Shown here: piece by piece, positions 11,792 to 14,700 of the stretch
Position numbering within the stretch: the first letter of the stretch is position 1
How the letters are laid out: each line of letters opens with the position of its first letter
The notes under the pieces: generated by a model
Told to the model about the DNA's origin: nothing
The model's database searches: none
The model's input: the letters and a program-made list of their open reading frames with translations, nothing else
Made by a program: the position numbers and the translations under genes
Origin: Schmidtea polychroa
Lineage: Eukaryota
Reading direction: 5' to 3'
Assembly (NCBI GenBank): GCA_044892525.1
Contig: CM097885.1
Location: 29,886,001-29,950,000 of the forward strand
Length of the DNA stretch: 64,000 nucleotides

Positions 11792-14700
11792 GTAGATGCA
11801 GTCATTGAGGAACCAGTCCAAGATACTGTGGACCTGCCAATACCAATAGAGCCCACAGTTGTCGAAGAACCACAGATAACCACAAACAACGAAAATATAG
11901 AAATTAGTGAAACAGATAGAGATTTGGTAGAGAAACACACAACACCTGCACCAACATCAGTCAGCAAATCAAAACAACAACCAAAAAATATCCGGTCCAA
12001 GAGCATAAAGAAAAGAAGACAAGTGGATGACACCGAATACCAAGAAAACACAAAGGATAACAAAAAAATACGTACCGGTGGAGGACCGTCAACGGCAAAT
12101 ACTCCACTGACCAATCTTATTATACCAAATATGAAAATCAACGATGAACTAAAAATCCAATGCAATTGCAAAAAAAATAGATACTCGTACTCAACAGATA
12201 CCAATGCCACCAAACACTTCAAAGAGTTACATCCACAATCCGGAGATCCAATAATAGAGTGCGGAATATGCAAAGCCATCATCACTATCAATGAAGCAAT
12301 AGAACATATAGCAGTCCATAGAGAGAACAATACAAAAGAAAGGAACATACAGCAGCCCGCAATCAAACCAACAGAGGAGGACATCCCTACGGAGACCAGC
12401 TGACTATCACAGACAGCGATAGAATATTACATAAAATTTCTATCGCTCAGTATACCTACTCCAAACACCGTGGCCTATATCAAACCAACATGTGCCACGG
12501 ACCTGATAGAGAATAATAAGGCTGGTCTCTACAGTAACATCCATTTGGATACAATCGTGGGCTCTGATAGGGTCGTATGGCTGATCCATTGGAAACTCTG
12601 TCACTGGTCAATATACCTAGCGGACAAAGAAAATAGGGAGTCGGTAATTCTTGATACTGATGACCAAATATCCGAATCAGAGAAAAGTACAATAAAGGCC
12701 AAAATGGATGAAATACTAAGGATGACTACACAGGATCAAGCCCCATTCAACAGAATATCAATTGACGAATACCCCAAACAAGATAACGATTATGATTGTG
12801 GAGTGTTCGTTCTTCAATATATAATGGACTTCTTAGAAAATCCAGAGAGACCCTTATTCAATATGCCTGATTCAGATAAAATAAGAACACAAATTACAAC
12901 GAGCATACTAGAAGATATCAAAAAATACAAAAAATGCAACAATGAAACAAAGAATGAAGACATAGAAGACGCCATAAATCAATTTAGACTACACCAATTA
13001 TCAATAAATGACATACTTAATTGGTTCAAGAACAGATTCCTAAAAGATCAAAAGCCGAGAAGAGCATGCAGAAGCGAAAATAAAAAACCCAAGCTATGCT
13101 CATACCAAATACAGAGATTATATACAATAAACTCGGGCAAAGCAATAATACAAATTCACAATGAAACATGCAAAGTTATTGACCTAACATCAACGGCAAT
13201 GGACCTGCATTTTATAAGAACAAAGCCTCCAAAGATACAAAATATGATTAATATTACGGATAAAAGACCAGAATGGGAATCATCAAAGCCATTTACAGAG
13301 AAAGATGTATCCATTGGAATAAAAAACAGCAAAGATGCAGCACCAGGAGAGGATGGAATTCCAATAAGAGCATGGAAAGAATGGATGCCTGAAGACCCAT
13401 TAACTCCAATATTCAACAAAATAATAGAATCCAAAAACATCCCAGATTCATGGAAAACTTATGTTACAAAGTTAATTAAAAAACTAGGCAAAAGTAACCA
13501 AGCACACAATCCGGCAAATTGGAGACCAATAGCATTAATGCCCACAAGTTATAGAATTTTTATGAAAATCCTTAACAAAAGAATTCTCCAATGGATCCAC
13601 GAACACAGGTTAATTTCGAAATGGCAAAAGGCAGTGAATATATCCAATGGGTGTGATGAACATAATTACATCATCACTGTTCAAAAAGAAAAGCCCAACA
13701 GAAAAAGATACAAAGGATGTGAATGCCACCTAGTGTTCTTGGATCTTGCGGATGCCTTCGGCAGCATTCCACACGAAGTGATCTGGCATACTTTAGAACA
13801 GAAAGGCCTAAATAAAAACACCATAAGCCTATTGCAAGAATGCTATAAAGACTGTCACACTATATATCAAAGTGGTGACACCAGATCAAGCCAAATCAAA
13901 CAAGTAAAAGGTGTTAGACAAGGATGCCCACTATCAATGACCATCTTCAGCCTCTGTATTGAATATCTAATACAAGCTGCAATAAATAGTGGGAAAGGAG
14001 TCGAGATAGCTGGAGAGAAAATAAGCATTTTAGCATATGCGGACGATCTCGTTCTTATGGCACCACAACACTATCAAATCCAAGAAATGCTCAACATAAT
14101 AGTGGAACAAGCAAAGATGGCTCACCTTATATTTAAACCCGAAAAGTGTGGTTACTACCTAAATAAAAAAGATGCTATTGGATGGGAAAACAACATCTTT
14201 CTCGACGGAACAAAGATCAAACATATAAATGAGGAAATTCTTTACACTTACCTTGGTGTCACAGTTGGTAGCACAAAGAAAAACGACCTAAATCAAATTT
14301 TCAAAGAAGTTGAAGACAAAGCAATCAGCATTTTCAGATCTTCGTTGAGGGCTCACCAGAAAATCGAGGCATATAACATCTTTTGCCATTCAAAATTCAT
14401 ATTCATCTTGCAAGCCGAAGAAATAGCTAAAAGCGAAGCTGGAAAATTTGATGACAAAATTAGAATGCTAATAAAGGATAAAGAGGTGCTTGACCTACAA
14501 CATAAAAGCCCTCTAATGGACGCAATTTTTTACTCCCCGACCGAAAAAGGAGGCATTGGTATTACAAAGATAGTAGACGAACAGATCATACAAACAATTT
14601 CTAGTTTCCTAAAGTTGATAAACAGCAGTCATTCGGCAATAGTAAACATATTAACGGAAGAATTAATAGATGTAGCCGAAACAAGAACCGATTCCCCCAT

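Follow-up and report, generated by a model that had tools for sequence, protein, structure and literature searches.

In a 64-kb stretch of Schmidtea polychroa DNA (contig CM097885.1, positions 29,886,001 to 29,950,000; hereafter the window), retrotransposons lacking long terminal repeats (non-LTR elements) carry an in-frame TGA, followed by CTA, inside the region predicted to encode a Ulp1-type (C48) protease. Sequence comparisons indicate that this shared TGA is not decay: the stop is kept, with coding selection acting in one frame on both of its sides. The best reading, which we regard as probable, is UGA readthrough of the alphavirus-like (type II) kind; the readthrough itself, its rate, the residue inserted and the activity of the protease are inferred.

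Ribosomes would read through the kept TGA at a low rate to give the full protein of protease, reverse transcriptase (RT) and endonuclease; the UGA-C context probably assists in this, as does the 3′ stem-loop that is predicted. Most ribosomes would stop, releasing a protein made of open reading frame 1 (ORF1) plus the zinc fingers, with some 15 residues of an incomplete protease at its end; in the remaining few, a near-cognate residue would be inserted at the position of Trp448 in the active-site lid of Ulp1. The near-cognate residues inserted at UGA are Trp, Arg or Cys. The outcome would be a Gag/Pol-like ratio, with a complete protease in the readthrough product alone. The initial annotation had proposed that readthrough sets the ratio of a short zinc-finger protein to the polyprotein; readthrough is retained here as the best explanation, while the short product would comprise the whole of ORF1 together with the zinc fingers.

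A retained stop inside a predicted protease

The TGA CTA occurs in frame at six places (Table 1), and all six fall in a single column of the protein alignment, in agreement with the peptides quoted in the initial annotation. Also confirmed were its statements that family A has Leu at the homologous codon (CTA at 5559 and 24782), and that the stop is the sole interruption in about 3.2 kb of family C, where the frame runs from 11696 to 15007 with one stop and homology extends over about 11762-14962. The sites 32253/55933 and 33904/57584 lie within one 5.9-kb duplication of 97.6% identity, leaving four separate insertions. The three divergent types described earlier are indeed three sequence types, but at depth they amount to no more than two lineages, C/B and D. 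Between these lineages the synonymous divergence (dS) is 2.7-3.0, that is, saturated; amino acid identity is 44-49% over about 110 codons past the stop and 22-24% upstream, and about 1.25 changes per site separate them in the tree. Families B and C share 93% nucleotide identity in the ten codons round the stop, as compared with 40-80% further upstream and 57% in the zinc-finger region. Since the identity peaks round the stop, the C and B stop may be one event shared by recombination. In the Ulp1 tree, three of the 14 branches are starred and the placement of D as sister to C+E+A is weak (81/73), so family A may or may not have lost the stop.

Across the 5687 codons of 12 element segments there are 20 stops, a total in which the junction stops and the natural frame ends are counted, and one other Trp-to-stop decay was observed (at 22101) against 94 TGG codons. 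We estimate that the probability of decay having produced a shared stop at the same codon of both deep lineages is of the order of 0.003-0.01, a figure that leaves out the retention of the stop between D1 and D2/D3 (dS 0.14-0.16) and in the contigs of sequencing runs. Over 12330-12480, 20 contigs from three of four sequencing runs list differences at 12361-12379 and 12430-12450, and none of them lists any difference at 12380-12429. Rare variants are lost from contigs, and the listing omits differences lying near contig ends; the stop is therefore shown for abundant subfamilies, not for every copy. The initial annotation had reasoned that readthrough would be untenable if most genomic copies had TGG and, as far as these contigs show, they do not. 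In one run, downstream subfamilies with depths of 380 and 607 meet a single TGA-bearing contig with a depth of 795.

Selection on the two sides of the stop, which the initial annotation had proposed to measure, was assessed as the ratio of nonsynonymous to synonymous substitution (dN/dS) by simple counting on single, partly decayed copies. The values indicate purifying selection both upstream (0.26 for C-B and 0.33 for D1-D3) and downstream (0.25 for D1-D3, 0.10 for C against the copy at 15895, and 0.16 for C-D1 further on). Among the contig differences listed (40 of 150), 26 of the 35 past the stop are synonymous and none makes a stop.

The predicted Ulp1/SENP core extends across the stop, and a His-Asp-Cys triad is present in the alignment. 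In an AlphaFold model (pLDDT 87.6), for which the stop was replaced by W and the 33-row alignment included open-frame relatives, residues 73-263 align to residues 431-621 of 1EUV, with 181 residues aligned (Z 19.6, root-mean-square deviation 2.6). According to this alignment the stop is model residue 88, and the protease fold starts about 15 residues before it. A single-sequence model of the part past the stop was uninformative (pLDDT 36.5). When X was placed at the stop, yeast Ulp1 was the best solved match (E 2e-6) and the X lay opposite the W of RRWLND, bearing out the earlier proposal that the stop matches the Trp of the Ulp1 'WL' motif; with W at the stop, the Ulp1 match reaches back to EEDIPT/VRDFKT, a partly circular result. 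The aligned Ulp1 Trp is chain position 48, which is Trp448 in our own numbering, and Trp448 lines the active-site tunnel (PMC9603560; cited, like the other PMC articles below, for the portions consulted).

A PT..DIP motif 5′ of the stop is kept in C, B and D as well as in the stop-less family A, and the first in-frame ATG past the stop in C is codon 101, beyond the catalytic His at codon 67. Because the modelled fold spans the stop, a complete protease, for which we presume proteolytic activity, would need sequence from both sides, which favors a fusion protein. The residue at the stop column in relatives is Leu, Glu, Tyr or Trp; among NeSL elements and cellular Ulp1s, Trp is the commonest at this site, and Tyr, Phe and Leu also occur (S5 Fig, PMC4640811). 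Given Leu, Glu and Tyr in the relatives and Tyr and Phe in that figure, the alignments indicate that Trp is not required at this position.

RNA context, distant relatives and points against readthrough

The stem-loop predicted in family C (10 bp) begins 11 nucleotides past the stop, at +15 when the U is +1 (z-score −4.16), and is covered by the two best of 155 element windows. After the D1 stop, a predicted stem-loop begins at +16 (z −3.4), and the three best of 74 windows in D1 and of 44 in D3 lie round the stop. At 147 nucleotides, the D1 window gave a z of 0.21, and folds of this length did not reach significance in D, B or A. The type II stems of Sindbis virus (SINV) and Venezuelan equine encephalitis virus (VEEV) begin at +16 and +12, respectively (PMC13517186).

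Among distant relatives bearing the Ulp1 domain, 16 of 21 (15 of 19 clusters at 90%) are annotated to start 8-51 codons past the junction, a count that leaves out P0007 and P0009 (distant, with open frames and with Tyr and Leu at the site), the weak matches P0029-32, P0034-36 and P0038-41, and the RT-only matches. The nearest annotated start is about 5-6 aligned codons past the junction, and several of the contigs have kilobases to spare. This pattern is indirect evidence, consistent with an upstream stop that misleads the gene caller. Two relatives, P0037 and P0058, carry Trp at the junction. A search with an alignment of the upstream region returned P0037 alone, and thus none that ends at the junction. 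No Ulp1 profile match was present at any of the 19 loci from a metagenome scan (4 loci) and a genome scan (15 loci), and two viral scans found no loci.

The scans yielded side observations. One locus in a contig of a metagenome-assembled genome (MAG), L010 (107-5350, + strand), holds an unrelated LINE of the apurinic endonuclease (APE) type, in which a 520-codon ORF1 and a 1226-codon ORF2 lie in one frame with a single TAG between them and no Met ahead of the endonuclease domain; this is another readthrough candidate, and likely eukaryotic contamination of the MAG. Loci L005-L019 are eukaryotic-type non-LTR RT genes in contigs filed under bacterial MAGs, likewise likely contamination.

Several observations weigh against readthrough. 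Only two deep lineages carry the stop, and all the retrotransposon copies in the window are broken. The initial annotation had called for the downstream RNA to be folded: a stable stem is predicted in C and D1, but the stem is weak in D2/D3 (z −1.4 at the target window) and there is none in B (z +0.6), whose copy is broken 41 nucleotides on. The C and D stems have non-homologous 3′ arms with no compensatory change seen, and contig variants at 12445 and 12446 fall within the C stem. The description of UGA-CUA as a classic readthrough context holds insofar as the hexamer is present at all six sites, but it proves weaker evidence than was claimed: CTA is the commonest Leu codon in these elements (33%), stop-less family A keeps CTA TCA CA, and TGA also closes the polymerase frames of A and F at their natural ends. 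Five of the 21 relatives (4 of 19 clusters) continue through the junction and have Glu, Leu or Trp there, which means that not all members carry the stop, and gene callers pick internal starts too, as in P0002 versus P0052. The presence of W and of open-frame relatives in the input of the structural model, noted above, belongs here as well. Finally, the flanks of the gag-UGA-pol junction of Tca2 gave no readthrough in yeast (PMC2194720).

Alternative explanations of the stop

Termination followed by AUG-independent reinitiation just past the stop, resembling that of L1 and SART1, would yield two proteins. Reinitiation is a documented route to ORF2 in LINE-1 and SART1, and in SART1 it needs a downstream structure (PMC5972666), a part that the hairpin could play here; moreover, some bacterial CE-clan proteases align from model residue 86-88 only, making a core that starts near the stop conceivable. 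We nevertheless consider it unlikely, as C has no in-frame AUG before codon 101, the AUG overlapping the stop in D is out of frame, the product would be without the Trp448 equivalent and some 15 residues that align with Ulp1/SENP, and the PT..DIP motif 5′ of the stop would be left unexplained. Spliced-leader trans-splicing (or cis-splicing) at the CAG that ends 9 nucleotides past the stop would place a leader AUG in frame with ORF2. The acceptor would lie at a codon boundary, CAG occupies +7 to +9 in C, B and D where stop-less A has CAA (CAG makes up 29% of Gln codons), and the CTGAC over the stop in C and B resembles a branch-point consensus; this motif is, however, 9 nucleotides from the AG and absent in D. 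The flatworm leaders reported all end in ATG, and leader pieces have been found on LINE copies (PMC12582326). With T at just 19-30% in the 27 nucleotides ahead of the AG, with frame-keeping cis-splicing donors that are weak and cut the zinc finger, with no loose end at 12412-12413 among the contig ends listed, and with a product that would be without the first 18 residues of the fold, we judge splicing at this place quite unlikely.

A-to-I editing of UGA to UGI in part of the transcripts would restore the exact Trp of Ulp1, and in C, B and D the stop is predicted to be paired within short helices formed locally. Planarian ADARs are reportedly the subject of a published paper (PMC8797187). These helices are of 4-7 bp and differ between the families, with no long duplex, and ADARs disfavor a 5′ G neighbor; RNA copied back into the genome should also build up TGG copies, and none is listed in the contigs. 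Editing appears very unlikely on these grounds. If the stop were a plain terminator, the RT would be made from a separate, shorter transcript or from a start site inside the frame, leaving the protease region as a relic. The elements do end true frames with TGA as well, and the gag-UGA-pol junction of Tca2 contains a minor promoter (PMC2194720), but purifying selection acts on the 100 codons from the stop to the first AUG, and the His, Asp and Cys are retained, so these codons must be translated, and we give this explanation little credence. Least credible to us is that non-autonomous copies acquired a nonsense mutation and were mobilized by intact partners, or that a Trp codon decayed repeatedly. 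It would agree with the broken state of all the window copies, with the TGG-to-TGA decay at 22101 and with the Trp-bearing relatives P0037 and P0058, and is opposed by purifying selection downstream among the subfamilies that share the stop, by the lack of any listed TGG contig and by the keeping of the stop across saturated synonymous divergence.

Three further candidates were tried and rejected. SART1-type stop-start coupling has no ORF2-frame AUG overlapping or adjoining the stop. A host code in which UGA means Trp was dismissed on a count of 0 internal TGA versus 81 TGG in 11 frames, these being cut at stops and including the 853-codon C frame with 15 TGG. For a selenoprotein, Rfam gave only two large-subunit (LSU) rRNA matches in the window and no selenocysteine insertion sequence (SECIS), the stop aligns to Trp, and the catalytic Cys is 132 codons on.

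The elements, the remainder of the window and known systems

The window consists of + strand non-LTR retrotransposon fragments, broken and partly duplicated, and of pieces of a Polinton-like element. The retrotransposon pieces show the order ORF1 region, two zinc-finger-like motifs, Ulp1-type protease (Pfam C48) and RT; a CCHC finger and a restriction-like endonuclease (PD..D.K.P motif, from translation) come after the RT in families A and F. The RT gives Pfam RVT_1 matches in the window. A 28S rRNA fragment stops at 20926, where it joins element sequence, and its 28S continuation is the 3′ flank of family A (9404 and 28626). Because both 28S junctions agree with the ones shown for LIN9_SM of Schmidtea mediterranea (S6 Fig, PMC4640811), and in view of the domain make-up, we assign the window elements to R5/LIN-lineage non-LTR retrotransposons of the NeSL clade, the LIN9-type antisense 28S target having been seen for the family A 3′ end and one ORF1 piece. 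The junctions by themselves make a planarian host likely. The window families form a starred clade with the Ulp1-bearing relatives, in a tree built without named R5, LIN or NeSL references.

Table 1. Positions, strands and supporting details of the features discussed (window coordinates)
Feature	Position	Strand	Details
Family C, TGA CTA TCA, candidate readthrough site	12401..12409	+	sequence, alignment; no variant listed in run contigs
Family D copy 1 (D1), TGA CTA GCA	21894..21902	+	sequence, alignment
Family D copy 2 (D2), TGA CTA TCA	33904..33912	+	sequence, alignment
Family D copy 3 (D3), TGA CTA TCA	57584..57592	+	sequence; duplicate of 33904; weaker stem 57599-57652
Family B, TGA CTA TCA	32253..32261	+	copy broken about 41 nucleotides past stop
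Family B duplicate, TGA CTA TCA	55933..55941	+	without stable 3′ hairpin
Family A, Leu codon in place of the stop (CTA CTA TCA)	5559..5567	+	alignment; duplicate at 24782
Predicted 10-bp stem-loop, family C	12415..12447	+	begins +15; z −4.16
Predicted stem-loop after D1 stop	21909..21962	+	begins +16; z −3.4
Predicted Ulp1/SENP (C48) core across stop	12356..12928	+	His 12602, Asp 12653, Cys 12797; Pfam C48 above cut-off
Family C frame: linker, two zinc fingers, stop, Ulp1-type protease, RT, thumb	11762..14962	+	truncated at 14962 before endonuclease
Two predicted zinc-finger-like motifs, 5′ of stop	12161..12319	+	translation and alignment; no Pfam match
RT domain, family C	13496..14233	+	Pfam RVT_1, E 7e-29
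Family A in-frame TGA CGG with GC-rich predicted hairpin (5153-5186)	5145..5186	+	z −2.7; duplicate 24368-24409
28S rRNA fragment	20330..20926	-	Rfam LSU matches; end 20926 is LIN9_SM-type antisense 5′ junction
Family A 28S-derived 3′ flank (LIN9_SM-type 3′ junction)	9404..9455	-	duplicate near 28626

At 15327-15367 and 20886-20926 (+ strand), the ORF1 frame passes through an antisense copy of the 28S target, diverged in the former (MKAWAATTSYPCG) and true 28S in the latter (MNAWPPQASYPCG); the target sequence therefore supplies or overlaps coding sequence. Copy D1 (21894-22955, compared with C at 12401-13457) has a mosaic make-up: it is D-type for about the first 130 codons past the stop and then 80-95% identical to C. 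In the copy at 15868-16882, a C-like start of the protease is followed by an F-like RT. The families seem to have exchanged protease halves and RT modules by recombination. The endonuclease region of family A (8238-9172) contains a 469-bp tandem repeat. An AT-rich repeat of about 0.9-1 kb, in both orientations and often adjoining retroelement pieces, is found at 3729-4757, 18551-19469, 22952-23980, 30415-31328, 52519-53057 and 53988-55008. Large duplications link 3538-10210 with 22761-29432 (99.8%), 30415-36323 with 54130-60003 (97.6%), and 44182-48179 with 60003-64000 (99.95%). The Polinton/adintovirus-like element, at 38589-50923, 60003-64000 and 123-731, encodes a double jelly-roll capsid, an integrase with a phospholipase A2-like domain, a 1429-aa protein-primed polymerase B and an A32-like ATPase. 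A tRNA gene search of the window found none.

Family A has a separate in-frame TGA CGG between the ORF1 domain, which it has in common with D, and the zinc fingers. The predicted hairpin there begins at +9, with 2 of 135 windows as good, and P0019, an independent family A relative on a short contig, is annotated from the first Met past this place. Against a signal, there is a single independent, decayed copy, and CGA-to-TGA is an easy mutation. We are inclined to doubt that it is a real readthrough signal, though the idea deserves to be entertained; possibly it is a relocated signal or CpG decay. UGA-CGG is the other type II hexamer (PMC13517186). More speculative still, and in our view rather unlikely, is a lineage of the R2 superfamily that uses type II readthrough as a mobile module: UGA-CUA and a hairpin would sit at the lid Trp of the protease in most families, the protease would exist after readthrough only, with its activity set by the inserted residue, and family A would have replaced the stop by Leu and independently acquired a UGA-CGG with a GC-rich hairpin 138 codons upstream.

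The routes known for polymerase expression in non-LTR elements are a single ORF, reinitiation, frameshifting and StopGo. R5 of Girardia is said to have two ORFs, and the stop described here may be its ORF boundary. The closest described element is LIN9_SM, of the planarian R5/LIN group (Kojima and Jurka 2015, PMC4640811), with the same antisense 28S target, both junctions and diverged 5′ target copies. The R5/LIN elements of the NeSL clade share the RT and restriction-like endonuclease, and the Ulp1-like protease is as in nematode NeSL and Utopia-1_TSP; the portions consulted give a protease for nematode elements only, and the main text there is without 'stop codon' or 'two ORFs' (PMC4640811). 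Type II viral readthrough, as in SINV, VEEV, chikungunya virus (CHIKV) and Colorado tick fever virus (CTFV), has the same stop, next codon and downstream polymerase, with a 3′ stem-loop beyond a spacer of 8-12 nucleotides (PMC13517186), and our predicted stems at +15/+16 (C, D) or at +9 (the upstream site of A) add to the likeness. The differences are the setting in a retrotransposon rather than a virus and the shortness of the stems (33-54 nucleotides), which are predicted; the word 'retrotransposon' does not occur in this review. In the gag-UAG-pol of the gammaretrovirus Moloney murine leukemia virus (MoMLV), the stop is also inside the start of the protease, at its fifth residue, and readthrough alone gives protease and RT (PMC13517186), but that system combines UAG and a pseudoknot with an aspartic protease in an LTR virus, whereas UGA and a cysteine (C48) protease occur here in a non-LTR element.

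Among retrotransposons, one sentence on the Group 3 non-LTR elements of Paramecium tetraurelia suggests readthrough (Guerin et al. 2017, PMC5405496); these belong to an APE-type clade of a ciliate, with no protease, and the consulted portions of that article contain no test of readthrough. Tca2 of Candida albicans likewise bypasses its gag stop, but is an LTR element (PMC2194720). LINE-1 and SART1, which must also bypass an ORF1 stop, have a spacer or a UAAUG overlap (PMC5972666), both absent here. In the open-access literature, with Repbase and subscription papers outside this scope, we found no readthrough report for NeSL/R5/LIN, and for non-LTR elements only the Paramecium suggestion; the consulted portions of PMC4640811, PMC5035012 and PMC5009743 do not mention readthrough. 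The type of element and, from viruses, the type of recoding are already known; readthrough in this kind of element has apparently never been shown.

If readthrough is correct, an element of the R2 superfamily would possess a Gag/Pol-like switch, and the database proteins of this lineage that start in mid-protease would be explained. Copies bearing the stop would then have been mis-scored as dead, and the families would offer several independent natural readthrough cassettes in a tractable animal.

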